64,000 nt of DNA from a virus (Duplodnaviria > Caudoviricetes): the IMG/VR virus record IMGVR_UViG_3300040811_001959; one strand, 5' to 3'. Positions within the stretch are counted from its first letter, which is position 1, and each line of letters opens with the position of its first letter. Position numbers and translations under genes: made by a program. Of this stretch, positions 30,860-63,282 are shown piece after piece. The notes below the pieces were generated by a model. That model was not told the DNA's origin, did not search any database, and saw only the letters and a list, made by a program, of their open reading frames with translations.

Positions 30860-31207
30860 GTGGATGATAAATTACAAAAAGCATTAGAATTTTCTAATTA
30901 TCTAATTACATTTAACGAACAAAAAACTGTATTACAAGAACATTTTAAAGATAATATAGTTTACTACTATAATGGCGCTAAGTTTACTATTACATTAGAA
31001 TTGTTGAGTTATTGCAAATCTTGTGTTGATAGTAATAGGCATAGTGAAATTTTAGTTGATGATAATTGTATACCTTTTAAAATTGATATTGCACCATTTT
31101 ATTTTTCTATTTTAAATTTGTATAATGATTCAAAAGAAAAGTATTTTGAAGAATATTCAAAGTTGATTAAATCACGAACAGTAAAAACTATTGTAGACTA
31201 TGAGTAA
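30860..31207 (+). CDS. Hypothetical protein, possibly fibre-assembly chaperone-like
   Basis: GTG start immediately after the upstream TAA; overlaps the next gene. ILVDDNCIPFKID loosely resembles fibre-chaperone (DUF4376-type) motifs. Confidence 0.4.
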   Translation: MDDKLQKALEFSNYLITFNEQKTVLQEHFKDNIVYYYNGAKFTITLELLSYCKSCVDSNRHSEILVDDNCIPFKIDIAPFYFSILNLYNDSKEKYFEEYSKLIKSRTVKTIVDYE

Positions 31208-32030
31208 AGGCATTTTACTCTTTGCTTTCAATAATAAAATTGATTATATAAAACAGGCATGTTTTTTTGCAATAACAGCAAAAGAATTTTTAAACTTACC
31301 TGTGAGCGTTGTAACTGATGATATTTCATATGCATCTAAGTTTGAAAAATATTTTGATAAAATAGTTCTTTTTGACAATCTAAAAGAAACTAATTATAAA
31401 GTTTATTTTAATGGTACAAGTTCTGAAAAATTAAATTTTAAAAATTCGGCTAGATGCCATTCATATGATTTAACTCCTTATAATGAAACTTTAGTAATAG
31501 ATACTGATGTATTATTAGGCAATAAGATTTTCCGCGAATGTTATAATTCAATTGGTGATTTTTTAATTTATGATATTGCTTATTTTTTAAATGATATTAA
31601 AGGCGCTGAAATAGAATATTGTAATGATGTAGGAATAAAGTTTTATTGGGCTACGGCATTTTTCTTTAGGAAAACTATAGAAAATAAAATATTTTTTGAT
31701 TTACTAAAGCATATTCAAGATAATTGGAATCATTACAGATTTAATTATAAAATAGATCAAACATATTTTAGGAATGATTATGCATTTAGTATTGCAATTC
31801 ATATTATGAATGGTTTTGGTATAGGAAATTTTGCTAATCCTATGCCTGGAAAACTTTATTTTTTATCAGATAGAGAATATATTGTTGATTATAACAAAAA
31901 TAGTTTTTTATTTTTATTACAAGATAAATTGACAGAACAATATTTTTTAAGTAGAACGAAAAATTTTAATGTACATGTATTAAATAAATTCAGTTTAGAT
32001 AAAATTGTAAATAAAAATATCAATGAATAA
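31200..32030 (+). CDS. GT-A fold glycosyltransferase-like protein (GT8-like)
   Basis: GILLFAFN..DY.....LNLPVSVVTD start; PYNETLVIDTDV DxD motif after a hydrophobic strand; RNDYAFSIA. Confidence 0.65.
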   Translation: MSKGILLFAFNNKIDYIKQACFFAITAKEFLNLPVSVVTDDISYASKFEKYFDKIVLFDNLKETNYKVYFNGTSSEKLNFKNSARCHSYDLTPYNETLVIDTDVLLGNKIFRECYNSIGDFLIYDIAYFLNDIKGAEIEYCNDVGIKFYWATAFFFRKTIENKIFFDLLKHIQDNWNHYRFNYKIDQTYFRNDYAFSIAIHIMNGFGIGNFANPMPGKLYFLSDREYIVDYNKNSFLFLLQDKLTEQYFLSRTKNFNVHVLNKFSLDKIVNKNINE

Positions 32031-32832
32031 TGGTTTTTTAATTTATGCATCAGGTATTGACTACATAAAACAAGCCTATCTGTGTGGACTAAGTATAAAA
32101 AAATGTAATAATTATCCAATTTCTCTTGTTACAACAGATGATACTTATATTACAGAAAAAATTAAAAATTTTTTTGATAAAATTATTATTGTTCTACCGG
32201 ATTTAAATCATCGTTATCATATCAGTAATAGGTCGTCTTTGTATTTTTTATCTCCATATGAAAATACAATTGTTTTTGATAGTGATACAATTATATTAGA
32301 AAATTTTGATAAAAAATGGCAAGAATTATATGATCAAAATTTCATATACTATCCTACAGATGCATTTACGTATAGAAATGTCAAGGTAACAAATGATTTT
32401 TATAGGAAAGCATTTGTTGATAATAATTTGCCTAATATTTACACAGGTTGTTATTTTTTTAAAAAATGTAATGAAAGCGATAAATTTTATAGCTTATTAA
32501 AAATAGTTGCAGATAATTGGCCTGAATTTTACAAAATATATTTAGGCAAGGATAAATTAAATTTACCTAGTATGGATATTTTGACAGCTATTACAGATAA
32601 AATGTTAAAAGTAAATAGTATTAAACAAAAATCTTTTTTTAAATTTATTCATATGAAAAATAGAATTCAAGACTGGAAAATTAATGCAAATTCATGGTTA
32701 GATACAATTCCTTATTATATTAATGATGATAGTGAATTATTTGTCGGAAACCATAAACAGAGTGGAGTATTTCATTATGTTATTAATGATTTTTGTAACG
32801 ATTTTATAATTGATACATTTGAAAAATTATGA
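32023..32832 (+). CDS. GT-A fold glycosyltransferase-like protein, paralog of the upstream gene
   Basis: GFLIYASG.DY....YPISLVTTD; SPYENTIVFDSDT DxD motif; SMDILTAI aligns with the paralog's NDYAFSIA. Confidence 0.65.
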   Translation: MNNGFLIYASGIDYIKQAYLCGLSIKKCNNYPISLVTTDDTYITEKIKNFFDKIIIVLPDLNHRYHISNRSSLYFLSPYENTIVFDSDTIILENFDKKWQELYDQNFIYYPTDAFTYRNVKVTNDFYRKAFVDNNLPNIYTGCYFFKKCNESDKFYSLLKIVADNWPEFYKIYLGKDKLNLPSMDILTAITDKMLKVNSIKQKSFFKFIHMKNRIQDWKINANSWLDTIPYYINDDSELFVGNHKQSGVFHYVINDFCNDFIIDTFEKL

Positions 32833-33359
32833 ACTTTTACGTTTCTTATTTTGCAGATTCAAAAGAAGTCTGGCAATTTAGCAATGTACAGCCAGATAGT
32901 GATGATTTTATTGTAATTAATAAAATAGAAGATTTAGGAGGATTAGACGTAAGGAAAGATTGTATAACAAATTACAAAGTTAATTATGATAGTTTATTTG
33001 ACAAATATTATATAACAAGTAAAGTAGATGTAAGTAAAAATACTAGTTTTATAGAAATTAAAGAATTTGTGTATGCAGATATATTTATTGTTCAAGATTT
33101 TAAATCAAATAAATGGAAATTTATTTTATCAGATCAATGCCAAATAGATGATAATCCTGAAAAATTATATTTTTCAATATGTCAAAATAATAATCCTAAT
33201 ATTTTAATTAGATTAATTGAAATTAATTTTGATACTTTATATTATAGTAAAGAAATATTATTTCCTTTTCAGTATGAAATTGAAAATGATAAGGAAAAAA
33301 TAAGTATTTTTACGCACTATACTTCAATTAACTATTCTTATAAAAAAAATTATGAATAA
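32829..33359 (+). CDS. Hypothetical protein
   Basis: 176 aa, ATGA overlap with the upstream gene and 8-nt overlap with the downstream gene; no recognisable motif. Confidence 0.55.
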   Translation: MNFYVSYFADSKEVWQFSNVQPDSDDFIVINKIEDLGGLDVRKDCITNYKVNYDSLFDKYYITSKVDVSKNTSFIEIKEFVYADIFIVQDFKSNKWKFILSDQCQIDDNPEKLYFSICQNNNPNILIRLIEINFDTLYYSKEILFPFQYEIENDKEKISIFTHYTSINYSYKKNYE

Positions 33360-35898
33360 TATATTTAAAATTGCAGAACATGATGTAATTTTTTTGTCTT
33401 ATGACGAACCAAATGCTGAAAAGAACTATGCAGATTTATTAACAAAAATACCCTGGGCTAAACGAATACACGGGGTACATGGTTCAGATTCTGCACATAA
33501 AGAATGTGCAAAGATAAGTGAAACAGAAAGATTAATAGTTATAGACGGTGATAATATTGTTGATAGTAATTTTGTAAACGAGGAAATAAAATTTAAAAAA
33601 AATGTTGATATAACAAAAAATGTAATCAGTTGGCCAGGTAGGAATATTATCAATGGGTTAATATATGGTAATGGTGGTATAAAATGTTGGCATAAGCAAA
33701 CTTTACTAGATATAAAGACGCATGAAAATGCCGATCCAGATAACATACATGCACAGGTTGATTTTTGTTGGGATATAGAATATATTACAATGCAAAAGTC
33801 TATGAGTGTTGTAGAAAATAACTTTACACCTCAACAAGCATGGCGAGCTGGCTTTAGAGAAGGTGTGAAAATGTGTTTATTAGAAGGTGTTAAACCGTCT
33901 ATAGAAGAATTTAATAAAATACATTGGAAAAATTTGCATAGATTATACATATGGTGTATGACAGGACAAGATGTAAAAAATGGAATATATGCTATATTAG
34001 GCGCTAGGCAAGGTTTGTACAAGACTATGTGTACCGATTGGAATTTTATAAATGTTAGAGATTTTGCTTATTTAAATTCTTTATGGAATGACGAATTAGC
34101 AGGTATAGATGAAGATAGTGCTGTTGATCTCGCACAACAGGTCGGAGATAAAATTAAACAGCATTTAGATATACCTATTTCTAGCTTGCCATTAAGCGTA
34201 GATCAAAGCAAATTTTATAAAACTACATTTACAAATAGCGTTAGACCAAAGCATCCTTCGTTAGCTACTGATAAAGAAACAGCAAGTTATGATATTGTAA
34301 TGATAACATATAATGAATTAAATGGTACAGAAAATTACAATAGATTAAAAGACAGATTTACAAATGTAAAAAGGATTCATAAAGTAAAAGGAATACATCA
34401 AGCTCATATAGCAGCCGCAGAGATATGCGAGACTGATATGATGTGGGTAGTAGATGGTGATGCAGAAATTGTAGAAGATTTTTGTTTTGATTATATAGTT
34501 CCTGATAATGAAAAACAATTTGTACATGTTTGGCGCAGTCGAAATCCTATAAATGATCTAGAATATGGGTATGGTGGAGTAAAATTGTTACCTACAGATA
34601 TGACACGTAATATGGATTTATCAAAACCCGATATGACTACAAGCATAAGTAGACATTTTAAGAAAATGAATGAAGTAAGTAATTACACTAGATTTAATAC
34701 AGATGAATTTACTACCTGGCGTAGTGCGTTTAGAGAGTGTTGTAAGTTAGCAAGTGCAGTAATTGATAGACAAAAGCAAAAAGAAACAGATGAAAGATTA
34801 GAACGTTGGTGCAGTGATTATGGAAAAGATAGACCATTTGGAGAAGATGCAATCAAAGGCGCTAATCAAGGTAAAGAATATGGCATTAAAAATTGTGGAG
34901 ATATTGAAGAATTATCAAAAATAAATGATTTTGATTGGTTAAAAATTAAATTTCAAGAATTTAACAATGTAAAAGTAGATAGTATAAATGTTCCTAAAGA
35001 AGTAAATAAAAATATTGAATTTTTACATGGTTTACACGAGTATTGTTTATATAAATCTGAAAAAAAAGTTGCAGAAAATATAGATTATGTTTTAAATATT
35101 GCTTATTCTAATGATCCAGTTAGAGCTATTATAAATTATTTTTTGCCTAAAGCAATGTATAATTCTTTAGAGCAAGGAACGTTAATTGATGATTTAATTT
35201 TATACTGTTTGACTAATAATGATGGAAAAAACACTAGATATTTTAGATTTGTGAGAGATTTTGTAAAAAAAGGAAAAAATTTAAAAATTTTGTCTGATGC
35301 ATTTAGTCGTAGTCAAATGCGTAGTAAAATTTGGTTAGTTGACGAATTATCTAAAATTAATAAAAATTTTGATAACATAGTTTTATTAGCAGGATGGTAT
35401 GGTCAGTTAATTGATTTATTTGGAAATCAAAGTATAAATGAAATTACTTTTGCAAAATTTAGAAATATAGAACTTGACAAAGATTGTTGTTTAGAAAGTG
35501 ATTACAATTTTAATTTACGTAGATTAGAGGGTCATAAAGTTAAAGCAATAAATGTAGATATTAATAATCTTACCCTACATGAAAATGGTTATGAATGGGA
35601 AATTGAAAATTTTAAAACTGAAGAAAAATATTTAGAGAAATTTTTACCAGATTTAATAATTAACACAAGCTCAGAACATATGACAACAGAATGGTTCAAT
35701 CAAATACGTTTTAAAAAATGGACAAAAAAACCTCTGGTTGTTATCCAAAATAATAATTTTTTCGGAATACCTGAACATGTAAACTGTGTACATAGTATTG
35801 ATCATATGAAAAAAGTATTTCCTATGGAAAAAATATTATTCGAAGGAGAATTACAACTTAAAGGATATAAACGTGTTATGTTAATAGGGTATGCATGA
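33352..35898 (+). CDS. Fusion: two tandem GT-A (GT2-like) domains plus a C-terminal SAM-dependent methyltransferase-like domain
   Basis: Repeat 1 DVIFLSYDEPNA..RIHGVHG...LIVIDGD...AWRAGFREGVK. Repeat 2 DIVMITYNELNG..RIHKVKG...MWVVDGD...TWRSAFRECCK. C-terminal IVLLAGWYG...IELD...VDIN...DLIINTSSEH Rossmann pattern. Confidence 0.7.
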   Translation: MNNIFKIAEHDVIFLSYDEPNAEKNYADLLTKIPWAKRIHGVHGSDSAHKECAKISETERLIVIDGDNIVDSNFVNEEIKFKKNVDITKNVISWPGRNIINGLIYGNGGIKCWHKQTLLDIKTHENADPDNIHAQVDFCWDIEYITMQKSMSVVENNFTPQQAWRAGFREGVKMCLLEGVKPSIEEFNKIHWKNLHRLYIWCMTGQDVKNGIYAILGARQGLYKTMCTDWNFINVRDFAYLNSLWNDELAGIDEDSAVDLAQQVGDKIKQHLDIPISSLPLSVDQSKFYKTTFTNSVRPKHPSLATDKETASYDIVMITYNELNGTENYNRLKDRFTNVKRIHKVKGIHQAHIAAAEICETDMMWVVDGDAEIVEDFCFDYIVPDNEKQFVHVWRSRNPINDLEYGYGGVKLLPTDMTRNMDLSKPDMTTSISRHFKKMNEVSNYTRFNTDEFTTWRSAFRECCKLASAVIDRQKQKETDERLERWCSDYGKDRPFGEDAIKGANQGKEYGIKNCGDIEELSKINDFDWLKIKFQEFNNVKVDSINVPKEVNKNIEFLHGLHEYCLYKSEKKVAENIDYVLNIAYSNDPVRAIINYFLPKAMYNSLEQGTLIDDLILYCLTNNDGKNTRYFRFVRDFVKKGKNLKILSDAFSRSQMRSKIWLVDELSKINKNFDNIVLLAGWYGQLIDLFGNQSINEITFAKFRNIELDKDCCLESDYNFNLRRLEGHKVKAINVDINNLTLHENGYEWEIENFKTEEKYLEKFLPDLIINTSSEHMTTEWFNQIRFKKWTKKPLVVIQNNNFFGIPEHVNCVHSIDHMKKVFPMEKILFEGELQLKGYKRVMLIGYA

Positions 35899-36122
35899 AT
35901 TTAGAAAATTTTAGTCTAAGAAAGCTACAAAAAGAAAGTTCTCGTGCGTTAGCTACAATAGAAGCAACAAATAATAATATATACCAATTTAATAAGAATG
36001 CACATCACGATAGTCAAAATTGGTATAAAACTGTAATTAAATGGTATGTAAAAGAATATGGAGGATTACCCAGTGAAGTAGGTCCTGGAAAAGAGATCAA
36101 GCTTTTAACAGAAAATGTATAA
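35895..36122 (+). CDS. Small hypothetical protein (75 aa)
   Basis: ATGA overlap upstream and 8-nt overlap with the radical SAM gene; fills the gap exactly. Confidence 0.6.
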   Translation: MNLENFSLRKLQKESSRALATIEATNNNIYQFNKNAHHDSQNWYKTVIKWYVKEYGGLPSEVGPGKEIKLLTENV

Positions 36123-37182
36123 TTACAAAGATATAAAAACAATTCATTTAGAAATAACACAAAATTGTCAAGCTTCATGTCCTATGTGTGATAGGAATCA
36201 AAACGGCGGTGCATTAAATCCTCACATAAACTTAGATGAATTAACAATTAATGATGTAAAAAATATATTCACACCGGATTTTATTTCTCAATTATCTACA
36301 ATGTATATGTGCGGTAATTTAGGCGATCCTATTGTTGCTCGTGATACATTAGAGGTTTTTGAATATTTTAGGAGTAATAATCCTAAAATGTGGTTAAGTA
36401 TGAACACAAATGCAGGAGCTAGAGATGAGAATTGGTGGCAAGAGCTTGCTAAAATTTATGGCAGGATGGGAGCTGTTATTTTTAGTGTAGACGGCCTACA
36501 GGATACTAATCATATTTATAGGCAAGGTGTAGTTTGGGAAAATGTAGAACGGTCTATGCGTAGCTTTACAAGTGCAGGAGGAAGAGGACGTTGGGACTTT
36601 TTAATTTTTGATCATAACCAACATCAAGTAGAAGAAGCGGAGCGTTTAAGTAAAGAATGGGGTTTTGAAAAATTTATTAAGAAAAAAACTGGAAGATTTG
36701 TAACCGCAAATGTTGAAGCAAAGGAAACACATCAAGCAGTAAATAAAAAAGGTAAAAAAACTGCCGAACTTGCAAAACCCAAAGACGAATTTCAAAATAC
36801 TGCTGTAAAAAAGTTGCCTACAATATTAGAAAAGTATGGAAGTATGGACAGCTATTATGATGTTGTTCCGATAAATTGTAAAGTAAAAAATGAAGGCAGT
36901 TTATTTATAACAGCAGAAGGTTTAGCTCTACCTTGTTGTTGGACAGCTGGCCGGATGTATAAATGGTGGCATGAAGATCCTAAAACAGAACAGATTTGGC
37001 ATTTTATTAAAGATAAATCGTTAATTGATGCAAAAAAAGGCCTGAAAAAAGTTTTTGAATCAAGTGTTTTTAAAGATATCGAAAATAGTTGGAGTAAAAA
37101 AAATTGCAAAGAAGGAAAATTAAAAGTTTGTGCAATTAAATGCGGAAAAGAATTTGATCCTTTTACTGCTCAATTTAAATAG
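36115..37182 (+). CDS. Radical SAM protein with C-terminal twitch/SPASM-like Cys region
   Basis: HLEITQNCQASCPMC (CxxxCxxC), MCGNLGDP, FSVDGL; C-terminal PINCK...FITAEGLALPCCW...VCAIKCG. Confidence 0.88.
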   Translation: MYNYKDIKTIHLEITQNCQASCPMCDRNQNGGALNPHINLDELTINDVKNIFTPDFISQLSTMYMCGNLGDPIVARDTLEVFEYFRSNNPKMWLSMNTNAGARDENWWQELAKIYGRMGAVIFSVDGLQDTNHIYRQGVVWENVERSMRSFTSAGGRGRWDFLIFDHNQHQVEEAERLSKEWGFEKFIKKKTGRFVTANVEAKETHQAVNKKGKKTAELAKPKDEFQNTAVKKLPTILEKYGSMDSYYDVVPINCKVKNEGSLFITAEGLALPCCWTAGRMYKWWHEDPKTEQIWHFIKDKSLIDAKKGLKKVFESSVFKDIENSWSKKNCKEGKLKVCAIKCGKEFDPFTAQFK

Positions 37183-37185: not shown

Positions 37186-38454
37186 ATGTGTGGATTTTAT
37201 TTTACGAATATAAAACCTAAAAATTTTTATTTTTTAGATGTTATATCAAGAGGTTTAGATTATTGTGTTTTTGACTCCAATGATTATTTTGCTATACAAA
37301 GCGTGTTGCCTTGTGTTAATACAATAGATTTTACAATTTATGAAAGTAAAGAATATTTGTTTTTATATACAGGAGAAATTTACAATTATGATAGGAATTT
37401 TAATTCAGACACAGAAATGTTTTTTTATGATTTAATCCATAATAGAAATATTTCTAATTATAATGGTATGTATGCTTATGTGTTATACAATAAAAAAACA
37501 AAAAATATAAAATATGGCAGAGATAAAACAGGACAAATTCCCTTATTTGTTTATAATAAAGCAGGACAAATTATTATATCTAACACAATTAAAAGTATTG
37601 TTAAATCAATATCTCCAAGTTTGAATACAAATAGTTTGTTATTATGGAAAAAATCTAAACATTATATATTTAATGAGACACCTTGGCAAGATATATATCT
37701 AGTTCCTCCGTCAAGTACTGAAAGACTTGTTAACTCTAAAAAGACAATCAAAGAAACATTTCAAGAATTACAATTAGATTATGTATCAAAATTATCTGCT
37801 GCATCTATAAATAGTGGCGGTGTAGATAGTGGTATTGTTAGTAAATGGTTTGGACAATTTGAAGTTGCAATCAATCATGTTGGCAAAGACTTTGTAAGTA
37901 ATAAATTATCTTTTGCATTTGATGTAGAAGAAGACGAATGGATAGATTATGTAAATAATTTTATTCAAGATGTGTATCTTTTTCCTTACACGTGGAGTTG
38001 GGTAGGTTATTATATTTTAGGTAAAAAATTGCAAAAAAAAATTAATATTTTATACACTGGCGAAGGAGCAGATGAAATATTTGGCGGTTATCCAGGATAT
38101 GCAAAAGGTGAGAGAACTCCTTACTCTGATTATTTTCCGATTTATGGGAAAAATTTTTTAGTAGAAAATAAGTTAAGTGATCAAAAATATTTTATACCAA
38201 TTGCTACTATGGGAGCAAACTTAGCATTGGGTAATTTTTGTATAGAGGCAAGATCTCCATTCCTAGACAGACGTTTTTTGAATAATAAAAATTATTACAA
38301 AGAAAATGATAAGAAAATTTTGAAAGAATATTACAAAGAATTGTATAAAAAAGATTATTCAGCGAAGCAAGGATTTGCTGGATTTCCAGATGAGTATGGA
38401 AAAAATACAAGTTGGAAAGATGCATGTTTTGAACAGTTAAAAACACTTATTTAA
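37186..38454 (+). CDS. Asparagine synthetase B-like amidotransferase/amide ligase
   Basis: N-terminal MCG, GEIYN, RDKTGQIPLF, PP-loop SGGVDSG, TGEGADEIFGGY, EARSPFLD. Confidence 0.82.
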   Translation: MCGFYFTNIKPKNFYFLDVISRGLDYCVFDSNDYFAIQSVLPCVNTIDFTIYESKEYLFLYTGEIYNYDRNFNSDTEMFFYDLIHNRNISNYNGMYAYVLYNKKTKNIKYGRDKTGQIPLFVYNKAGQIIISNTIKSIVKSISPSLNTNSLLLWKKSKHYIFNETPWQDIYLVPPSSTERLVNSKKTIKETFQELQLDYVSKLSAASINSGGVDSGIVSKWFGQFEVAINHVGKDFVSNKLSFAFDVEEDEWIDYVNNFIQDVYLFPYTWSWVGYYILGKKLQKKINILYTGEGADEIFGGYPGYAKGERTPYSDYFPIYGKNFLVENKLSDQKYFIPIATMGANLALGNFCIEARSPFLDRRFLNNKNYYKENDKKILKEYYKELYKKDYSAKQGFAGFPDEYGKNTSWKDACFEQLKTLI

Positions 38455-38472
38455 TAATTAGGAATATCAATT

Positions 38473-43078: not shown

Positions 43079-43080
43079 TT

Positions 43081-55978: not shown

Positions 55979-58145
55979 AAGGATTTAGTTGGACATTAAT
56001 ATTTTTTGAAATTTTAAGTCTTGCACTAGAGACATAATCTTTTACATTAATATCATCTTCTTGCAAGATATTTTCAAGAATATCTTCTGCACTTTCGAAG
56101 TAAGTATCTTTAGGATAGAATATTCCTATTCTACTTATGTAATGATTTGTACCTTGTTTATTTGTGTATGTTCCTTCGGGATAATAAAATGCATTTTGTT
56201 TATTAAACATAAATTCATGTCCACCTGCAATATAATATAAGAATACTTCCCGAGTAACAGAATGTCGAGAGATCTTAGTATTTCCAGCAGTTTCTATATT
56301 AGCATCATAAGTTGTAGTGTATTTTAACAGAATACCTTTTGTAAAATAATCAATCCAACTATATTTTGTTGTAAAATTAGTTGTAAATTCAGTTTGTTCT
56401 CCGTCAATAAGAATATTTTTATTAAATTGTATAAGGTCTAACAATAACTCTTTATCTACTTGTTTATAAGTTTCTAAGAAAAACTTTGTAATTTGTTCGT
56501 AAAAATGATTTTTTCTTTCTTTTGTGCCATGTAAAAATAACCAAGCATTTGAATATCTGTGAAATTTTAATTTGTCTTTTTGATAAGGAAACCAAAGAGG
56601 TACATTTTTTTGTCTATCACGAACAGCATCTTCTTTACTTGCTAACAAAGTATCAAAAAAATCTTTATCGCCTTTTGTTTGGAACCAGTAAATAATTTTT
56701 TCAATCATATCGCATGCTTCGATATTATACTCATTTTGTAAATATCTTCCTACATAAAATATTGTTCTGCCTAACCATAATATTTGAATTAAATCACGTA
56801 CATGTCTAATATATCTCATATCCTCTCTTGTTATTGTACTTGTACTTCCAATAATATAAGCAAATTCTTTTTCATCTTGATATGGACTAGGTCCTTGTTC
56901 AAATTCGTCCCATTCTAAATTGTAAATAGTTTCATGTTTTTTTAAACTTATTTCACTGTTTTCTAACCATGCTAATTTGTAAACATTTATTTCTAGTGGA
57001 TTAAATTTTAACAATTTGCTCATTCCTTGTAGAAAACTTTCTTTTGTTTCTAACGGCATTCCCATAATCATTTCATGGTAATAAGGTAATCCCTTTTTTG
57101 TAAAGTTTTGTGCAATCCATTCAAAATCTTTTGTAATACTAAGGTTATCTCTTCTAATTGCTTGTAATGTAGGAGTATGCAAACTTTGTAAACTAAAAGT
57201 TGCTCCACTTCTACTAAAATCAAATTTTTCTAATATTTCTGCAATACGCAGGACTCTTTCTTTATTATTTTTTGCATAGGTAATTGCTGTTGTATGTAAC
57301 TTAGGATTAGGATGATTTAATTTTGCTTTAATTAAATATTTTGCAATATCTAAATCTCTATGTAATATACCAAAATTTGCATCTGATAACATTATTTCGT
57401 GTACATTTCCTACATACCAATCAATTTCGTCTTTAATACGTTTCATGCTAAATCGTCTTAATTTTTCTTCTAGTCCCCAATCACAGAATGTGCAAGTATA
57501 AGGACAACCTCTATTAGTTTCTAATACACCTTGTATTTGTATATCTTTAGGTAATTGTGCAATTAAATCATCATATAGTCCCAATGCACAAGCACTAGGA
57601 TAATCTAGTTCTGCTTTATGATTTAAATATCTCCTTATAGACTGCTTGCTAATAATTTTTCCATTTGCAGTTTTAGTAAAACAGTCATTAAAATAATGTG
57701 ACTTGTATATTGTCTTTTCGGCAAGTATTTCTCTTAGTATCATTTCTAATGCTACTTCGCCTTCGCTGTTAACGTAATATTCAAACTGTGGATTATCTGA
57801 TACAAATTTTTCAAAACGTTTAGGGTCTTGCGGAACTTCATTTCCGCCTACGATTATTTTTACATTAGGATATTTTTCTTTTATTGCTTTTGTAAGTTTT
57901 ATAGACCGGTTTTTATTCCACATATATAAGCTAACAAGAATCACATCAGGCGCACCTTTATGGTCAATTTCTGTAAGTAATTCCATAACACTTGTTTCAG
58001 GTTTATGATACGTTGCCCACCCTGTAAAATTAATATTTCTATACACATCATCTACCGTAGATATGTAACTTAATAGCGTTCCAATACTTACAGGTAAAGT
58101 AACGGTGTAGTGAGCACTTAGTTGAATACCAAAAACGTTAAGCAA
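55962..58145 (-). CDS. Cobalamin (B12)-binding radical SAM protein, class B methyltransferase-like architecture
   Basis: B12 domain VILVSLYMWN...IIVGGNEV...EGE; LETNRGCPYTCTFCDWG; LSDANFG; FSLQS. TTG start with GGAG 6 nt upstream. Confidence 0.88.
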   Translation of the reverse strand: MLNVFGIQLSAHYTVTLPVSIGTLLSYISTVDDVYRNINFTGWATYHKPETSVMELLTEIDHKGAPDVILVSLYMWNKNRSIKLTKAIKEKYPNVKIIVGGNEVPQDPKRFEKFVSDNPQFEYYVNSEGEVALEMILREILAEKTIYKSHYFNDCFTKTANGKIISKQSIRRYLNHKAELDYPSACALGLYDDLIAQLPKDIQIQGVLETNRGCPYTCTFCDWGLEEKLRRFSMKRIKDEIDWYVGNVHEIMLSDANFGILHRDLDIAKYLIKAKLNHPNPKLHTTAITYAKNNKERVLRIAEILEKFDFSRSGATFSLQSLHTPTLQAIRRDNLSITKDFEWIAQNFTKKGLPYYHEMIMGMPLETKESFLQGMSKLLKFNPLEINVYKLAWLENSEISLKKHETIYNLEWDEFEQGPSPYQDEKEFAYIIGSTSTITREDMRYIRHVRDLIQILWLGRTIFYVGRYLQNEYNIEACDMIEKIIYWFQTKGDKDFFDTLLASKEDAVRDRQKNVPLWFPYQKDKLKFHRYSNAWLFLHGTKERKNHFYEQITKFFLETYKQVDKELLLDLIQFNKNILIDGEQTEFTTNFTTKYSWIDYFTKGILLKYTTTYDANIETAGNTKISRHSVTREVFLYYIAGGHEFMFNKQNAFYYPEGTYTNKQGTNHYISRIGIFYPKDTYFESAEDILENILQEDDINVKDYVSSARLKISKNINVQLNPFKASA

Positions 58146-58671
58146 AAAATTCTCCGTTACAATATTTTTTGTATACTTCTTTATATGATTCTTTTAAGTC
58201 AAATTGTAAACTATATCTATTATATTCTTTATTGCAAACAGCATGCAAAACTTTGGCGTCAAATACAATTACCTTACCTGTATAATCTATATCAAACCAT
58301 TCTGATTTATCATTATGATAAAATTTAATTGGCTCGTATACCTCATTAGTATATATAGGAAAGATTACAGCAGTATAGCGTTCTGTATCTCTATGGATAG
58401 TAGGCCCATTATATGGAGGAAATTTTAATAGTTGAGTTGTTGTGTAATCAAGGTAAGGAAAATTTAGACTTTTACGTATTGTTTTTATAGGTTCTTTATT
58501 TTGTAAATCCGCATAATACCTATATGTTACACCAGTAAAGTTATCAATAGTGTATTTCGTTTCATCCCATCTGGGCGGAATATAACTATCCCAGTTGCCA
58601 ATATTATAAACTATGTTAGCTAATTTTTTAATATCATAATTAAATTCAAATGTAAAACATACTTTATTCAT
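58138..58671 (-). CDS. Small Fe(II)/2OG-type DSBH oxygenase-like protein
   Basis: LKFPPYNGPTIHRD (HxD)...AVIFP...VFDAKVLHAVCN..R.SLQ. Confidence 0.62.
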   Translation of the reverse strand: MNKVCFTFEFNYDIKKLANIVYNIGNWDSYIPPRWDETKYTIDNFTGVTYRYYADLQNKEPIKTIRKSLNFPYLDYTTTQLLKFPPYNGPTIHRDTERYTAVIFPIYTNEVYEPIKFYHNDKSEWFDIDYTGKVIVFDAKVLHAVCNKEYNRYSLQFDLKESYKEVYKKYCNGEFFA

Positions 58672-59395
58672 TAAAAACTACTTCAATCGTTTTTTGGGTT
58701 GCTTCTTCATTATATTTACAATAAACTCCACGTTCTTTTTTATAATTGAGTGTATTTTTGTGCCATGTATCTATACCAGGTTTACTAAAACTATGATGAG
58801 TTTCAGGCCATATGGTTATTTTACAATTTGTTAATTTTTGATAATCTAAATCATAAAAAGCTGGAGTCCAATTATCTAATTCTCCTACAAATATATGAAC
58901 ATTGTGATTGCGTATTTGATATATTTCTTGCGGTAATACAGTTGGTTTTAAACCTGGATACAAACAATAACTGTTATTCCAATAATTAGGATTATCATTT
59001 TGTTGTAGCCATAATGCTGCTGTACCACCATCTGAAAACCCTACTGCTTTACTATTAGTTATATCTGCGAAAGGTATAATTTTTTGTTTATTGAGAAGGT
59101 ATTCGTATGTCTTTATTTGATCCTTAGCACGTTGTTCTGGATCAACTCTAAATTCTTCCATACTTTCCCAGTTTTGTTTGTATATGCCTCTGTTGCTATA
59201 ACTGTCAACAATAATAACTGTATAATCTAATTTAAATGCATGGTTAATCCATAAATCTTCATTACTACTAATTCCTCCACTGCCGTGTATCAACCAAACG
59301 CAAGGTTGTTTTTTAATATTTTGATTATTTGTTTTAATCATAACAGCAATATCATCAATGGAAAAAAAAGAGGTTTTACAAACTGTTACAGTCAT
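58664..59395 (-). CDS. Dienelactone-hydrolase-like alpha/beta hydrolase
   Basis: LIHGSGG, GFSDGG (GxSxG nucleophile elbow), GELDNWTP (acid), HHSF (His). Start moved to 59395, giving an ATGA overlap with the upstream gene. Confidence 0.75.
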   Translation of the reverse strand: MTVTVCKTSFFSIDDIAVMIKTNNQNIKKQPCVWLIHGSGGISSNEDLWINHAFKLDYTVIIVDSYSNRGIYKQNWESMEEFRVDPEQRAKDQIKTYEYLLNKQKIIPFADITNSKAVGFSDGGTAALWLQQNDNPNYWNNSYCLYPGLKPTVLPQEIYQIRNHNVHIFVGELDNWTPAFYDLDYQKLTNCKITIWPETHHSFSKPGIDTWHKNTLNYKKERGVYCKYNEEATQKTIEVVFNE

Positions 59396-59853
59396 TTTAG
59401 TCTCATTACATATTGATATTCGCCATAATGCATTAGATCGTGCGTGACAGTCCAATTATATTCGCTTTTTTTTGCAAAATATTCAAATAATTTTGGATTG
59501 AATTCTCTACTAAGCCATATGTCTTTGTAGCCCAATGACTGTGCATATTTTACACTTTGGGATAATGTTTCTAAACCTCTAGCTAAATCATCGCTTTTAG
59601 ATCCAAAGTTATATGCTCTATCTCTAGTATGCCTACTCATTATTCTAATAGACCCATTGTATTGCGGACGTTCTATACCTGCACTATAATAAATCATTTT
59701 ATTATTATCATACCCCATTCTAGCAAATTTCGTATGTTCAAAAAGAGGTCTTTCTAAATAATTACTTGCTAACTTATGATCTGCGTTTTTAGAAAATAAT
59801 TCTTTAATTTTATTTATATGCAATTCTATCGGTTCTAAGTGCCATGTAATCAT
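59392..59853 (-). CDS. Possible GNAT-fold acyltransferase
   Basis: IRIMSRH...GLETLSQSVKYAQSLGYKDIWLSRE resembles GNAT motifs A/B. Start moved to 59853 (ATGA overlap). Confidence 0.4.
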   Translation of the reverse strand: MITWHLEPIELHINKIKELFSKNADHKLASNYLERPLFEHTKFARMGYDNNKMIYYSAGIERPQYNGSIRIMSRHTRDRAYNFGSKSDDLARGLETLSQSVKYAQSLGYKDIWLSREFNPKLFEYFAKKSEYNWTVTHDLMHYGEYQYVMRLK

Positions 59854-60461
59854 AGGTCTTGAATGTCTTCTACACCATTTAAGCTCCACATAAGAGCAAC
59901 TCGAGGGTTGTTACTCATGTTAATTACAGCATGTGGATATCCAATGTTAAGGAAATAAGCATTACCGTTTTCTAGATTATATGCTTCTAATTTCTCTTCA
60001 CGTTTAAATAAATTAATAACTTGCTTATCTCCGTAAATAGGTACAATACATCTGACAGCATAATTTACATTATAATCAACATGGAATGGAATATTTTTTC
60101 CTGGAGCAAGTTTTGTTATTCTAATTCTGCTTGCTGGTGCTTTAAATTGTGTAATTATTTTTTCGAAATAACTGCCTTTGTAATCTTGTGTAGGAACATT
60201 ATATAAATGTTCCTCCTTACGTATTAGTCTTTCTTTAATACTAGTAGTATAAGGTAATACCTCACTAGGTGTAGTTAAATTAATTTGTTCGAAGTTGTCA
60301 TAAACATGATCAACTAATTCCATATGATTATCGCATAGCATTGGATTTGCTGTTCTTACATCCACAAATTTTTCTGCGATGTTGTTAAAAGCAGTTTGTA
60401 ATTTTTGTAAATCAATATTTAAATTATATTTATGAATACTAGGTAAGCATTTTTTGTTCAT
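59850..60461 (-). CDS. AspH/LpxO-family 2OG oxygenase
   Basis: RIRITKLAPGKNIPFHVD...RCIVPI...YFLNIGYPHAVINMS..PRVALM. Start moved to ATG 60461 (AGGA 7 nt upstream). Confidence 0.8.
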   Translation of the reverse strand: MNKKCLPSIHKYNLNIDLQKLQTAFNNIAEKFVDVRTANPMLCDNHMELVDHVYDNFEQINLTTPSEVLPYTTSIKERLIRKEEHLYNVPTQDYKGSYFEKIITQFKAPASRIRITKLAPGKNIPFHVDYNVNYAVRCIVPIYGDKQVINLFKREEKLEAYNLENGNAYFLNIGYPHAVINMSNNPRVALMWSLNGVEDIQDL

Positions 60462-61230
60462 TATATATTCCTGATAAACAGAGTCTTGCTGTGGTTCCGC
60501 TACGTCTAAATTTTTTATACTCTTCTCTAGTGCTTGTAGCAAGCCAAACACTATCACTAGGAACAATTTCTAATTCTTTACAAATAGTTTTTTGTCTATT
60601 ATTTAATAAATTATATACAAAGTCAACATCAAAATTTTTGATAATAGCTTCACTAACTTTATTCGCAAAATAGTTATAATACTTTGCACTATGTATTAAA
60701 GTATCTAATTTAAGATCTTTTTGTTTTGTAAATATCCAACCAGTTCTTATATTTCTAATCCCAAATGGTTTAGAAAAACTATAAAATACATATTCAACAT
60801 TTTTAGGCAAGTTTATTTTTTTTATTTTAGTACTACCAATGTATGCTAAATCTACTACAGTAGGCGTGTTCTCAGGAATGTTTATAAAATTTCCATTTAT
60901 TGCACTTGGAACACTTATGTACTTAATACATTTATCGTACTTATCTCCTTTAGGTTGTATCCATTGATAATCTCCTTTGTCCATGTAGACAGTCCGGTTA
61001 TCTTGATAATACCACCAATTTAAGCCTTCAGTTATCCCGTTCATTGGATAAACATAAAAGTCTTTTAAATTTACTATAGGTTGCAACCAATCAATAATAT
61101 TTGTTTTATATTTGTCTACACCATCAAAGTCTGGTTTAATTTTTTCTATAACTTTCTTTACTTCGGGTAAAACATTTGTTCTTACTGCAAGACTTTGTGC
61201 ATGTAATACATTATTATAATGAATAGTCAT
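60439..61230 (-). CDS. PLP-dependent fold-type I enzyme (class I/II aminotransferase, HisC/CobD-like), short
   Basis: NGITEG, GDYQW, SVPSAINGN, VVDLAY (PLP-Asp), YSFSKPFG..NIRTGW (Schiff-base Lys). Confidence 0.72.
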   Translation of the reverse strand: MTIHYNNVLHAQSLAVRTNVLPEVKKVIEKIKPDFDGVDKYKTNIIDWLQPIVNLKDFYVYPMNGITEGLNWWYYQDNRTVYMDKGDYQWIQPKGDKYDKCIKYISVPSAINGNFINIPENTPTVVDLAYIGSTKIKKINLPKNVEYVFYSFSKPFGIRNIRTGWIFTKQKDLKLDTLIHSAKYYNYFANKVSEAIIKNFDVDFVYNLLNNRQKTICKELEIVPSDSVWLATSTREEYKKFRRSGTTARLCLSGIYNEQKMLT

Positions 61231-62191
61231 AGTGAACTCTATCTTGGGTTTTATACCAAAATGTTGCTCTTAATAATTCTCTTTCTACGTGATCTGGAAC
61301 ACCGTGGTCTCTACGGTGAACACCAGTTAATTGATCTGCTATAACAATATCAGTCTCTTGCCATTCGTGTATATAGTGATACTTAGTGTCTATTAATAAA
61401 TCTTGTTTTAATTTATTGTAAATTTCTAAAGCATCGTCTACAGGATTATAATTTTCGTCAACAATATTTTCTATATTTATGTAATTAAAAAATAATCCTA
61501 CTGCACCAATAGGATGTCTTGGCGATAATCTATTGTATCCTTCGAATTGGTACCTTCCTTTTTTGTATAAGTGACTATTAGCAGGATCAAAATTTACTGC
61601 ATTATGTATGGATTGTGTTTTCGCATTTTCATTTATTTGATGATTTAAATTATGTTCTAATGTATCTTTTGCTGCTTTGCCTGCTAGTGCAAGTCCCGTT
61701 CCTGCTCTGTGTAAATTAATAGCTCTTTTTTCAAATGTTTTATTTTCATCATATGTCCATTTCGTATATAAAGTTTTATAACGTTTTTGTAAATCTTTTG
61801 GCAGTGTTTTAAAGTACGGTATGGTATTAGAATATGTAGTAGGACTGCATTCTTTTTGGTCGATCGGAATCTTATGACCGTATATACTTACAACTTCGTG
61901 ACTGTCTTGTGTATATAATATATTTGAATGCCAGTCTATATCATGCTTGCCAAATAAACCTTTATGCCCGTGCTCGTCAACTGCCTGATTATTTACACGC
62001 CAAAAAATTGGAAATTCTTTATAAGCACACCAAACTTTAGGGTGTTGATGATAACCTACATCTAATAAAAAGTTATTGTATTGTGACAAACTCATACCGT
62101 GGTCTCGCATTACAACAATACCAACATCTTTTAATAGTTTAACAATTTTTTCTCTATCTGTACTTTTTGTAAATGCTACTACTTCGCTCAT
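61214..62191 (-). CDS. TauD/TfdA-family dioxygenase with atypical HxN metal motif
   Basis: GIVVMRD, GLFG..DIDWHSN, YFKTLP..L, HEWQETDIVIADQ...VHRR...RELLR. Confidence 0.75.
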   Translation of the reverse strand: MSEVVAFTKSTDREKIVKLLKDVGIVVMRDHGMSLSQYNNFLLDVGYHQHPKVWCAYKEFPIFWRVNNQAVDEHGHKGLFGKHDIDWHSNILYTQDSHEVVSIYGHKIPIDQKECSPTTYSNTIPYFKTLPKDLQKRYKTLYTKWTYDENKTFEKRAINLHRAGTGLALAGKAAKDTLEHNLNHQINENAKTQSIHNAVNFDPANSHLYKKGRYQFEGYNRLSPRHPIGAVGLFFNYINIENIVDENYNPVDDALEIYNKLKQDLLIDTKYHYIHEWQETDIVIADQLTGVHRRDHGVPDHVERELLRATFWYKTQDRVHYDYSL

Positions 62192-62710
62192 CTAATTCTC
62201 TAATAAATATTCTATATTTTGTTTAAATTGAATAGTACAACTTACTCTTGGATAGTTATCATGGTTCATGCATACTTGATGCGGTTCTAATACACGCATT
62301 GCAACCGCTTTGTTTAAAACAAAGTAATCCACTTCTTCTAAATTATTAGTATCTAATTCGTAAGCTGTGACACCGTTTGATTGTTTTATCTTACTTACCT
62401 TACCTGTATTTTTGTAATATTTTGTTACAGTATCATTACAATTCATAATAGGAAAGGTTATACGAACAGGTTTTTGGTCAGTGTCTATATGTACATTTCC
62501 CTGACGTGTATGCGAAACGAATATACCTGCAAATTCAATATCCCATTCGAATAGATTTTTGACTTGTGGAAAGTTTTCTAAAAGATAATCTGTAGCAAGT
62601 CTCCAATTTCCCTCACCTTTTTTAATCAGATGCGGATTTTCTAGCAGGTATTTTTTAATATCTTCTGCTAAATTTTTGTACTTTATGTCTAGATATTTGT
62701 AATATATCAT
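62192..62710 (-). CDS. Small Fe(II)/2OG-type DSBH oxygenase-like protein
   Basis: GNVHIDTD (HxD), RITFPIMNC, MRVLEPHQV....RVSCTI. Confidence 0.65.
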   Translation of the reverse strand: MIYYKYLDIKYKNLAEDIKKYLLENPHLIKKGEGNWRLATDYLLENFPQVKNLFEWDIEFAGIFVSHTRQGNVHIDTDQKPVRITFPIMNCNDTVTKYYKNTGKVSKIKQSNGVTAYELDTNNLEEVDYFVLNKAVAMRVLEPHQVCMNHDNYPRVSCTIQFKQNIEYLLEN

Positions 62711-63282
62711 ATAATATTTACTTTGTGATGGTCTTTATGATTGCCTTCCCAAGGAGCAATAAAATTTAGCCATATGTTATTGATAGGACCTTCTGCATTG
62801 TGACCCCATAAATTTAATGCACCAAACCCAATATAAGAAAGTAAATAAATTATGCCTAAAACAACAAATGCTTCAATGCCAAAGAGAAATGTAAATAGTA
62901 GTAAGCTTGTCCAATACAAAACATGTCTATGTTTGTGAAAAAACATAACCCTTGGATTTCTAAGCATATCGTTTAAAAATCTACGTGGAATATGGTCAAC
63001 ATGCCATAAACTAAAAAGTATTACATACCAAGAGTGTAAATTCTTGTTGTGCGGGTCTAAATCTGTATCACTGTATGTATGATGCATACGGTGAATTCCT
63101 ACCCATGTTAGTGGCGATCTGCCACCACATAGTAAACCACAATATAAAATTACTATTTCTTGCCAAGGTTTTGCATAGAATTCATGATGAGAAAAGTAAC
63201 GATGATATCCATATGTAATACCAATTGAAACAATTAGGATATACATTACATAAGCAAATAATATTAAGTATAAAATTTCCAT
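62707..63282 (-). CDS. Membrane fatty-acid desaturase (delta-9-like), compact
   Basis: His boxes GYHRYFSH, HRMHH(TYSD..DPH) and EGNHKDHH; hydrophobic segments at the N-terminus and before box 3. Confidence 0.85.
   Translation of the reverse strand: MEILYLILFAYVMYILIVSIGITYGYHRYFSHHEFYAKPWQEIVILYCGLLCGGRSPLTWVGIHRMHHTYSDTDLDPHNKNLHSWYVILFSLWHVDHIPRRFLNDMLRNPRVMFFHKHRHVLYWTSLLLFTFLFGIEAFVVLGIIYLLSYIGFGALNLWGHNAEGPINNIWLNFIAPWEGNHKDHHKVNII

Follow-up and report, generated by a model that had tools for sequence, protein, structure and literature searches.

The window, the whole 64,000-nt stretch of DNA that was analysed, belongs to an uncultured marine jumbo myovirus of about 320–340 kb, of the Rak2/Atu_ph07/XacN1 type, and it contains a 32-kb island directly downstream of the tail-fibre genes. 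The plus-strand part of the island (31200–55978) comprises 24 long ORFs and a conserved 75-aa ORF, and the minus-strand part (55962–63282) comprises nine ORFs. Most of these genes overlap or abut, the largest plus-strand gap being 59 nt, a layout that matches the 25 plus-strand and nine minus-strand genes with little intergenic DNA of the original prediction. The features are as follows.

24196..29902, plus strand: three tail-fibre genes, left flank (PHROG tail fibre families; paralogy)
24196–26301, plus strand: fibre gene 1, tail collar domain (Pfam Collar, 1e-15)
26310–28328, plus strand: fibre gene 2
28343–29902, plus strand: fibre gene 3
29898..29926, plus strand: late-promoter-like TATAAATA, then AGGAG, upstream of w29927
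29927..31207, plus strand: w29927 and w30860 (synteny; composition)
31200..33359, plus strand: g1 and g2, paralogous GT8-like GT-A glycosyltransferases (GTs) with a DxD motif, and g3 (176 aa)
33352..35898, plus strand: g4, core gene, 848 aa, two GT-A domains and a C-terminal class I SAM methyltransferase domain
35895..36122, plus strand: p75, 75-aa protein translationally coupled to g4 and g5
36115..37182, plus strand: g5, core gene, radical SAM (rSAM), Cys-rich C-terminus (Pfam, NCBIfam)
37186..40792, plus strand: variable cassette with AsnB-like amidotransferase (g6/g7 with the next), CMP-sugar-type cytidylyltransferase and paralogs g8/g9
40852..42243, plus strand: g10, core gene, N-terminal-twitch rSAM (NF033640)
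42266..51427, plus strand: tailoring block g11–g18, namely g11 SGNH-like, g12 HxD..H protein, g13 double N-twitch rSAM, g14, g15 Asp/Asn-hydroxylase-type, g16 and g17 N-twitch rSAMs, g18 SGNH-like
51431..52552, plus strand: g19, core gene, rSAM, Cys-rich C-terminus (Pfam, 3.6e-14)
52540..55978, plus strand: g20 Asp/Asn-hydroxylase-type, g21 nitroreductase, g22 methyltransferase-like, g23 TauD-type, g24 cupin-like
55962..63282, minus strand: nine-gene operon g25–g33, namely g25 B12-rSAM (KedN5-like), g26, DLH hydrolase, g28, g29 Asp/Asn-hydroxylase-type, g30 PLP-like, g31 TauD-type, g32, g33 desaturase-like membrane protein
63326..64000, minus strand: g34, partial fibre-like ORF, Ser/Thr- and Gly-rich (right flank)

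Fibre or virion genes had been proposed on both flanks. The left one is certain, with the baseplate, a 5521-aa protein and three fibres sharing an N-terminal domain, and the right one consists of the partial ORF g34, which has no PHROG match, resembles hypothetical proteins of HTVC008M and Melnitz, and has a counterpart in G004 matching cyanophage tail-fibre and structural proteins. Similarly, of the late-promoter-like motifs thought to head both operons, the plus-strand one is exact (TATAAATA with AGGAG before 29927), whereas only AATAAATA was found upstream of 63282. The TATAAATA motif occurs eight times in the window against 26.8 expected, and is therefore depleted there. Gene coupling is unbroken downstream of the exact motif and RBS at w29927, and small contigs from one metatranscriptome fall on the fibre genes, w29927 and g5.

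The order of fibres, Ser/Thr-rich protein, 115-aa ORF, GT8 pair, GT-A/GT-A/methyltransferase protein and rSAMs was recovered in 12 IMG/VR viral contigs, one of them a complete 344-kb phage, and in the cultured Ralstonia phage RsoM2USA, in which the module lies downstream of virion-confirmed structural genes and contains a GDP-mannose 4,6-dehydratase. As anticipated, all relatives examined have the island next to their fibre module and vary by combining a fixed core with differing cassettes; the fibre linkage has been kept across large evolutionary distances. The pair w29927 (310 aa, fibre-like, Ser+Thr 24%) and w30860 (115 aa) always precedes the GT8 pair, in the 12 viral contigs, L063 and RsoM2USA (w30860 in the last), and we regard them as a candidate acceptor and a candidate helper, respectively. 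The g1/g2 profile (A4) matched glycogenin (GT8; E 1.6e-6), and the Atlas lead also pointed to GT8. Between L087 and the window, w29927, w30860, g1, g2 and g3 share 33–51% identity, below the 67–71% of the fibres; the core genes g4, g5, g10 and g19 are 91–95% identical. There are thus two divergence classes, a fast front unit and a slow core. L087 lacks the 37186..40792 cassette, g5 being followed directly by g10; G004 retains g28, g29, g30 and g33; and L011 again has the B12-rSAM, g24, AspH, desaturase and TauD types.

Identity in relatives is 84–92% for g4 and 88–93% for g5, and g19 reaches 94–95% in G003 and G004. The AF2 model of g4 (pLDDT 89) has tandem GT-A domains and a class I methyltransferase domain, and its nearest predicted structural matches (Foldseek) are Mimivirus R699 and LH3, both of which glycosylate proteins, and the polymerase K4CP, in addition to methyltransferases. 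R699 is the top match, at 9–10% identity, and the resemblance of the model to it is confined to the fold level.

The enzyme content of the island largely agrees with the original prediction. The eight rSAM domains were all recovered, each with a CxxxCxxC motif and one of them (g17) weak. The curated cut-off of NF033640, an N-terminal twitch rSAM subfamily that carries no function assignment, was passed by g10 (410 bits; cut-off 170), both halves of g13 and g16, g17 falling below it; g5, g19 and g25 are rSAMs of other lineages. Five of the roughly nine Fe/2OG oxygenases are firm by Pfam and the other four are suggested by weak hhalign scores or motifs.

36115 (g5), 40852 (g10), 43976 (g13, two), 48413 (g16), 49579 (g17, weak) and 51431 (g19), plus strand: rSAM domains
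55962 (g25), minus strand: rSAM domain with B12-binding domain
47784 and 52540, plus strand, and 59850, minus strand: Fe/2OG, Asp_Arg_Hydrox (Pfam)
54510, plus strand, and 61214, minus strand: Fe/2OG, TauD (Pfam)
55298, plus strand (E 0.0014), and 58138, minus strand (E 0.046): Fe/2OG, weak hhalign support
43045, plus strand, and 62192, minus strand: Fe/2OG, HxD...H motif alone

At least four GT-A domains had been called, and four were found (g1, g2 and two in g4, by the glycogenin profile and the g4 model). Pfam identified the AsnB-like enzyme (which retains Cys2), CTP_transf_3 (NeuA-like), the nitroreductase and the DLH hydrolase. The remaining assignments are softer: two SGNH proteins (E 0.03–0.06 and motifs), the PLP enzyme g30 (E 0.0025 and an SFSK motif), the desaturase g33 (His-box motifs and three hydrophobic segments) and, among the methyltransferases, g22, which is below Pfam cut-offs, the g4 domain being present in the model. 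The proposed GNAT-like gene found no support in the island. Only g33 has hydrophobic segments among the island proteins, family searches of the island yielded no flippase, polymerase or ligase, and the cytidylyltransferase is the sole sugar-nucleotide synthesis gene in the window.

The core is also present in chromosomes of Bdellovibrionota (predatory Bdellovibrio-type bacteria), amid GT2 genes, with identities of 41–45% for g5, 57–66% for g19 and about 60% for g10, which has more than 2200 homologs. Bdellovibrio sp. HCB2-146 carries g5-, g19- and g10-like genes amid five GT2 genes, one GT7C-like gene and one GNAT gene, adjoining a 1959-aa Peptidase_S74 fibre-like protein, and a Bacteriovoracaceae chromosome has ten rSAM genes with three GT2 genes and a PMT_2-like gene. 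A recognised GT lies within 10 kb in 44 of the 65 Bdellovibrionota loci, and the rSAM core is therefore tied to GTs outside phages. This context, together with linkage to fibre rather than replication genes and the lack of any hydroxymethylase, kinase or DNA-GT family in the island, makes it extremely improbable that the island hypermodifies phage DNA bases, an alternative named in the original prediction, even though phage base hypermodification employs GTs, rSAM, PLP and Fe/2OG enzymes.

In Bdellovibrionales, a recurrent GT2-GT2-NTwi-NTwi operon is closed by an MFS transporter, which fits a small exported product. The product might then be a free or lipid-bound small molecule made during infection, for example a glycolipid, a tailored glycoside or a compound resembling an aminoglycoside. 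The minimal chromosomal core (L084) has no fibre or other acceptor gene nearby, the L002 rSAM array adjoins a Trp halogenase and an AMP-binding enzyme, and desaturase-like, SGNH-like, DLH, KedN5-like B12-rSAM and TauD types are frequent in secondary metabolism. However, a small molecule leaves two features unexplained, namely that the genes have long kept a strict position, coupled behind the fibre genes, and that g1/g2 have diverged as much as w29927; moreover, the phage island contains no carrier protein, PKS/NRPS or exporter. We consider this explanation distinctly unlikely.

The best Foldseek matches of g10 are the RiPP maturases SkfB, CteB and SuiB. Peptide maturation is the typical role of twitch/SPASM rSAMs, the substrates of Asp/Asn beta-hydroxylases are proteins, and RiPP clusters also contain AsnB-like, nitroreductase and B12-rSAM enzymes. 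Direct modification of protein by the rSAM and Fe/2OG enzymes of the island is therefore conceivable, with the GTs secondary; it would introduce crosslinks, epimerisation, methylation or hydroxylation into fibre proteins or a RiPP-like peptide such as p75, which lies immediately upstream of g5 and is conserved in ten loci (58–96% identity). However, the g10 matches are all weak (E 1e-6 to 1e-3, TM 0.3–0.4) and extend equally to viperin, MoaA, DesII and BlsE, neither a protease nor an RRE/PqqD domain came to light in the island, p75 is missing from loci that keep the core (those of Bdellovibrionota, L001 and L003), and the bacterial rSAMs are in operons with GT2 genes. Direct protein modification thus has little probability.

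Since the core lies beside fibre genes in jumbo phages and within GT loci in bacteria, the product is most likely a coat of extensively modified sugars, probably destined for the fibres. We tentatively favour, at somewhat less than even confidence for the whole, a cytoplasmic pathway, probably expressed late, in which a glycan is built, tailored and attached to fibre proteins. Its glycan component has good support: of the polymer or ligand originally proposed for tail or capsid proteins, or for envelope remodelling, the glycan-type chemistry stood (GT8/GT-A, GT2 context, RsoM2USA dehydratase), whereas we infer the virion acceptor, presumably the fibre proteins. The absence of export machinery counts for this reading, as do the GT content, the tie between rSAM core and GTs outside phages, the conserved fibre linkage, the two divergence classes, the exact motif before w29927 with the coupling behind it, and the metatranscriptome contigs. 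Against it stand L084, the MFS-closed operon, the RiPP maturases among the weak predicted matches of g10, the single sugar-nucleotide synthesis gene and the recurrence of the desaturase-like membrane protein with the core; to our knowledge, some 30 enzymes also far exceed the needs of any known virion glycan.

Beyond the enzyme families and folds, synteny, conservation and GT association observed above, we infer in what order the steps occur, which chemistry the individual rSAMs perform and that expression is late. The front unit would initiate sugar attachment on a fibre protein, and g4 would extend and methylate the sugar, on whose unactivated C–H bonds three distinct rSAMs (g5, N-twitch g10 and g19) may act. 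In the swappable cassettes, g6 and g7 would serve amidation and the activation of an ulosonic-type sugar as its CMP derivative, the Fe/2OG enzymes hydroxylation, the SGNH-like and DLH proteins the handling of O-acyl groups, the B12-rSAM C-methylation, the nitroreductase redox steps and g33 possibly the addition of a lipid-like moiety.

The same glycan chemistry could instead target the envelope of the infected cell (LPS core, O-chain or capsule), blocking superinfection or changing receptors. GT8 includes LPS core transferases active at the cytoplasmic membrane face, the lipid A hydroxylase LpxO belongs to the Asp_Arg_Hydrox family, and the cytidylyltransferase could supply CMP-Kdo-like donors. 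Envelope remodelling is also the published reading of GT8-rich host-recognition clusters, proposed for the GTs of pelagimyophage fibre regions (PMC7029224). However, no lipid-carrier GT, flippase, polymerase or ligase was found in the island, only one protein is membrane-bound, and phages whose hosts are unrelated (marine, Ralstonia) have retained the same gene order beside the fibres, which is unexpected for enzymes matched to one host surface. We therefore regard an envelope target as rather unlikely.

Turning to known systems, viral GTs of mycobacteriophages and chloroviruses (for example, the PBCV-1 Vp54 glycans) attach sugars to capsid or tail proteins within the cytoplasm, independently of host export machinery, and mycobacteriophage GT genes lie beside structural genes. 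These systems have one to six GTs and few sugar enzymes, and we know of none that has arrays of rSAM genes or a set of some 30 tailoring enzymes. Bacterial loci for O-antigen or capsule (Wzx/Wzy or ABC type) share with the island GTs, a CMP-sugar cytidylyltransferase, an AsnB-like amidotransferase, methyltransferases, acyl-handling enzymes and cassette-like variation, but the island has neither the phosphoglycosyl transferase that initiates synthesis there nor a flippase, polymerase, ligase or ABC exporter, and we know of no parallel among them for its rSAM and Fe/2OG density. RiPP clusters (sactipeptides, proteusins) resemble the island in combining multiple twitch/SPASM-type rSAMs with Fe/2OG hydroxylases, a B12-rSAM methyltransferase and a short ORF beside an rSAM, whereas the island has neither an RRE nor a leader peptidase or transporter, its twitch domain is N-terminal and the bacterial partners are GT2 genes. 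Mycobacteriophage virion glycosylation was reportedly described by Freeman et al. in 2023.

The Mimivirus fibril/collagen modification enzymes (L230 hydroxylase/GT and R699 glucosyltransferase) decorate the virion's own surface fibres and, like the island, combine an Fe/2OG hydroxylase with GT-A domains (PMC9546862, PMC12279948), but they include no rSAM enzymes, and the island phage's fibres have no collagen-like repeats. The host-recognition cluster (HRC) described for pelagimyophages and cyanomyophages (Zaragoza-Solas et al. 2020, PMC7029224) is also a large variable marine-myophage region with tail fibres, GT8-type GTs, rSAM cassettes and Asp/Asn hydroxylases. However, its phages are T4-like and of about 150 kb rather than Rak2/XacN1-type jumbo phages, it was read as host O-chain modification, and a GT-A/methyltransferase and three-rSAM core with a bacterial counterpart was not described; no g10 ortholog was found in the cultured pelagimyophage HTVC008M at E 1e-10. 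Fibre-linked hypervariable regions with rSAM cassettes and GTs in marine myophages, and a T4-like genome with 12 rSAM genes, had already been published without a function (PMC7029224, PMC5332604), so the novelty first suggested for the island was overstated. What is new relative to these two studies is the single membrane protein without flippase or polymerase, the conserved core with its bacterial counterpart, the preserved fibre-to-rSAM order and the contrast in identity between core and fibres.

The predicted gene layout was recovered in the window, and nearly all ORFs of the island abut or overlap their neighbours. The features concerned are as follows.

6991–23556 (+): one 5521-aa ORF, with the gp6-like wedge protein on one side and the fibres on the other
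28343–29902 (+): third tail fibre
29927–31207 (+): w29927 (Ser/Thr-rich, fibre-like) and w30860
31200–55978 (+): 24 long ORFs (g1–g24) plus the 75-aa ORF p75
33352–35898 (+): g4, core gene
35895–36122 (+): p75, coupled to g4 and g5
36115–37182 (+): g5, core gene
40852–42243 (+): g10, core gene
51431–52552 (+): g19, core gene
55962–63282 (−): nine ORFs (g25–g33)

The window is AT-rich, the GC content of the island being 24–33%. Genes for a baseplate hub, wedge proteins, a gp6-like wedge protein of 1143 aa, the 5521-aa protein and three tail fibres that are paralogs of one another occupy the left part of the window. The gp6-like protein is nearest (about 35% identity) to those of jumbo myoviruses of 337–490 kb (Atu_ph07, Phosso, SCTP-2 and the Rak2/GAP32 group), an identical copy occurs in a 16-kb IMG/VR fragment with a rated completeness of 5%, and one distant relative has a complete genome of 344 kb that bears terminal repeats. 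Taken together, these observations indicate that the predicted source is an uncultured jumbo phage of roughly 320–340 kb. DNA near-identical to the window was present in at least 16 metagenome studies (estuary, seawater), and a megablast search of the island against GenBank phages gave no match. Fibre or virion genes had been expected on both sides of the island; this was borne out on the left, but the right flank is an incomplete fibre-like ORF, supported only indirectly. The C-terminal quarter of the 5521-aa protein is 50–60% identical across relatives, and a virion-confirmed structural protein of 2541 aa occupies the same position in the cultured Ralstonia phage RsoM2USA, the likeness being one of position. 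By eye only, the C-terminus of the third fibre (segment ADLAENY...) resembles an autocleaving intramolecular chaperone domain. Collagen-like repeats that might serve as hydroxylation or glycosylation sites were sought in the fibres and none was found.

Late-promoter-like motifs had been assigned to both operons. The exact sequence TATAAATA, with AGGAG, lies before w29927, but only a one-mismatch version precedes g33. Over the whole window TATAAATA occurred 8 times versus 26.8 expected from shuffles, every shuffle yielding at least 8; such a shortage would be expected of a motif with a working (late) promoter role in the phage. The RNA trace of the island consisted of contigs from one metatranscriptome.

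All eight predicted radical SAM (rSAM) domains were identified with Pfam and NCBIfam, and each carries the CxxxCxxC motif. Scores exceeded the PF04055 cut-off (29.5 bits) for g10, g13 (twice), g16, g19 and g25, whereas g5 (27.2 bits) and g17 (18.1 bits) fell below it, both being backed by NCBIfam. Five of the eight domains belong to the N-twitch subfamily NF033640 (N_Twi_rSAM), defined by a score of at least 170 bits and a twitch Cys set N-terminal of the rSAM core: those of g10 (410 bits), the two halves of g13 (660 bits over two stretches), g16 (250 bits) and, below the cut-off, g17 (132 bits). The g25 protein combines B12-binding and rSAM domains (class B rSAM), but its score of 194.5 bits against NF033712, versus the 700 or more required, does not place it among the KedN5-type rSAM C-methyltransferases. 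The AF2 model of g10 was confident, and its Foldseek neighbours were weak and mixed (RiPP maturases, anSME, viperin, MoaA, DesII and BlsE), so that the predicted fold is non-committal as to substrate. PDB sequence searches with g4 and g10 returned no match.

The GT-A glycosyltransferases (GTs) of the original prediction also held, g1 and g2 by profile and g4 by structure model. The g1/g2 profile (13 homologs) matched glycogenin-1/2 over about 110 residues (E 1.6e-6 to 1e-5), with a DxD motif in which D103 is invariant and D101 nearly so; because Pfam itself gave no match, these proteins are at best distant members of GT8. The g4 model (pLDDT 89) contains two GT-A domains and a class I MTase domain, and g4 is thus a predicted dual-domain GT-A transferase. 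Its best Foldseek matches were the Mimivirus collagen glucosyltransferase R699 (4.6e-6), the chondroitin polymerase K4CP (5.9e-6) and LH3 (8.6e-5), and its C-terminal domain matched the TehB, NRMT and PsoF MTases. No Pfam model exists for the g4-type GT-A domain, whose family is very large (2251 clusters at 50% identity), and some proteins of 1500–2200 aa match the domain in 9–14 stretches (P0133, P0164 and P0271).

The AsnB-like amidotransferase begins with MCGF (Cys2) and matches GATase_7 (1.6e-10) and Asn_synthase (4.5e-9), in agreement with its initial assignment, and is predicted to be a divergent paralog rather than AsnB itself, since its TIGR01536 score (76.7 bits) lies under the equivalog cut-off of 267. 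The NeuA-like protein is a member of the cytidylyltransferase family PF02348 (CTP_transf_3; 38.1 bits versus a cut-off of 22.6), but the subfamily models PseF and KdsB gave only 19–27 bits against cut-offs of about 200. Of about nine proposed Fe/2OG oxygenases, three were recovered as Asp/Asn-hydroxylase-type and two as TauD-type, the other four showing weak hhalign scores or motifs only; an AspH profile gave no hhalign support for g12 and g32. Pfam searches identified the nitroreductase and the hydrolase (DLH), the SGNH, PLP and MTase (g22) assignments had weak matches only, and the GNAT-like one was left without support. The putative desaturase g33, only 191 aa long, has the His boxes HRYFSHH, HRMHHTYSDTDLDPHN and HKDHH and three hydrophobic segments, but matched neither PF00487 nor any other Pfam family at E ≤ 10. 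Sixteen orphan ORFs were compared with PHROGs and, up to E 10, with Pfam; nothing usable came out for g3, g8, g9, g12, g14, g28, g32, p75, w29927 and w30860. The p75 protein is conserved over its full length (58–96%) in ten marine loci; Bdellovibrionota and some of the phage arrays lack it.

More than 2200 homologs of g10 were found, including more than 120 non-redundant sequences at 78% identity or above, every one from marine data; no g10 ortholog was present in the GenBank phage collection searched. Contigs bearing g10 carry arrays of rSAM genes, one IMG/VR contig having nine N-twitch genes and seven other rSAM-like matches. On a 322-kb marine contig (L002, 19763–21413), a Trp-halogenase-family gene and an AMP-binding enzyme follow the rSAM array. 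A search with w29927 retrieved 12 viral contigs sharing one gene order: giant protein, w23577, fibres, w29927, w30860, g1, g2, (g3), g4, p75, g5 and g10. The suspected synteny of island and fibres was thereby upheld, tail fibres being contiguous with GTs and rSAM cassettes whose content differs between relatives: the viral relative L087 lacks g6–g9, the number of N-twitch genes varies, and the relative G004 keeps part of the − strand operon (g28, g29, g30, g33 and a g34-like gene). Identities with L087 were 67–71% for the fibres, 33–51% for w29927, w30860, g1, g2 and g3, and 91–95% for g4, p75, g5 and g10, and g19 was 94–95% identical in two relatives. At four-fold sites, divergence from L087 was 0.22–0.31 for g4, p75, g5 and g10 versus 0.44–0.53, about twice as much, for the flanking fibre genes. 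Because the core is low in both protein and four-fold-site divergence, it appears to be under purifying selection and also to have been shared more recently, in a cassette-like manner, which suggests recent exchange between phage lineages.

In RsoM2USA (344 kb), a module consists of the fibre-like ORF355, a w30860-like gene, g1, g2, a g3-sized ORF, a GT-A, an N-twitch-like rSAM, a second GT-A and an MTase-like gene; in the GenBank record (L105) this GT8/GT-A/rSAM/MTase block (ORF347–355) is labelled entirely as hypothetical proteins. The module is preceded by baseplate genes and by the virion-confirmed structural proteins ORF361 and ORF356, and ORF358, within the structural module, is a GDP-mannose 4,6-dehydratase (GMD) (PMC8504454).

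A scan for g10 relatives in one genome per prokaryotic species yielded 255 relatives, and the 78 loci kept were mostly from Bdellovibrionota (51–63% identity). The g10 ortholog has g5-like and g19-like neighbours in 39 of the 50 orthologous loci, and g4-type GT-A and g4C-type genes often accompany them. A prophage origin of these copies was rejected, since on a complete chromosome (L084, the minimal bacterial locus) the core set is flanked by a ribosomal-protein operon and housekeeping genes. Five GT2 genes, one GT7C-like gene and a GNAT are interspersed among the core set of the isolate Bdellovibrio sp. HCB2-146, and a Bacteriovoracaceae chromosome has ten rSAM genes, three GT2 and one PMT_2-like gene. 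The GT2/rSAM cluster of HCB2-146 is adjoined (L085, 17278–21377) by a protein of 1959 aa that has the Peptidase_S74 chaperone domain and is similar to phage tail spikes or fibres, echoing the fibre linkage of the phages. A second recurrent Bdellovibrionales operon, among housekeeping genes, encodes an unknown 580-aa protein, GT2, GT2/GT7C, two N-twitch rSAMs and an MFS transporter (L069, 5607–13945; also L066, L070, L077, L078 and L081). This MFS gene, the recurrence of a desaturase-like gene and the minimal locus, which has no fibre gene, are consistent with an exported small glycoside or glycolipid as the product, a reading that we consider unlikely.

In a quick tree, in which basal forks are open and outgroups long, the phage g10 sequences and MAG-binned contigs of eight other phyla grouped in a single clade (SH-aLRT 98), next to several deep-branching clades of Bdellovibrionota. 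MAGs of Bacteroidota, Pseudomonadota, Verrucomicrobiota, Chloroflexota and Actinomycetota include contigs with rSAM arrays (L006–L008, L045, L050, L055, L059 and L061); since these cluster with phage sequences in the g10 tree, they are probably phage contigs mis-binned into bacterial MAGs.

The strongest functional clue is the coupling of rSAM enzymes to GTs. As these families are repeatedly coupled in two unrelated genomic settings, and given the GT8, GT-A/MTase, cytidylyltransferase, AsnB-like enzyme and the RsoM2USA GMD, the gene content points to glycan assembly and tailoring, modification of DNA by the island being unlikely. Direct modification of a protein by the rSAM enzymes, a reading that we regard as unlikely, would be compatible with the non-committal fold neighbours of g10 and with the presence of p75. 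As a small ORF, p75 would be a candidate RiPP precursor, but its conservation spans the whole protein and some loci that keep the core lack it, and no RRE, peptidase or transporter families were found among the island genes with Pfam and NCBIfam.

Searches of the 34 genes with Pfam and NCBIfam found no initiating phosphoglycosyl transferase and no flippase, ABC exporter, polymerase or ligase family, and hydrophobic segments were found in no island protein except g33. The glycan pathway is thus predicted to be cytoplasmic, and an autonomous O-antigen-type export pathway (Wzx/Wzy or ABC) was rejected for want of membrane machinery. Similar regions have been read as remodelling the host envelope (PMC7029224), and the GT8 and LpxO-type families would fit such a target; however, the membrane steps are missing from the island and the synteny is independent of the host, and we find this unlikely. 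We favour the fibre proteins as candidate glycan acceptors, because the place of the island after the fibre genes does not change among phages whose hosts are unrelated, the front unit (w29927, w30860 and g1–g3) is more divergent than the fibres themselves, and translational coupling continues from the late-type promoter-like motif. The first candidate would be w29927 (24% Ser+Thr). A broader proposal, that the core is an undescribed radical-chemistry pathway producing a new class of modified glycan, installed on adhesion fibres by both jumbo phages and Bdellovibrionota, with the phage copy derived from a single transfer and then expanded to 8–16 rSAM genes per genome, is an unlikely one.

Few glycan-tailoring rSAM enzymes have been described, and to our knowledge none acts on a virion. 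The g10 family is abundant in the sea and expanded to 8–16 copies per phage genome, and in these phages few genes are as well conserved as the core. Should the product coat the tail fibres, host recognition, resistance to proteases or escape from defences in large marine phages would have a further, chemical layer, and the curated family NF033640 would gain a function. A wholly new route of glycan tailoring is less likely. [quoted passage not shown] HCB2-146 offer tractable models. Literature searches found no paper on the conserved core of GT-A/MTase and three rSAMs or its extreme conservation, on its occurrence in jumbo phages (one cultured) or its Bdellovibrionota counterpart, or giving NF033640 any function. 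A T4-like genome with 12 rSAM genes is already on record (PMC5332604), as is a fibre-linked hypervariable region of pelagimyophages containing rSAM cassettes and GT8 genes (PMC7029224). With its fibres, GTs, rSAM genes and variable content, the island corresponds to the hypervariable host-recognition cluster of marine myophages (PMC7029224).
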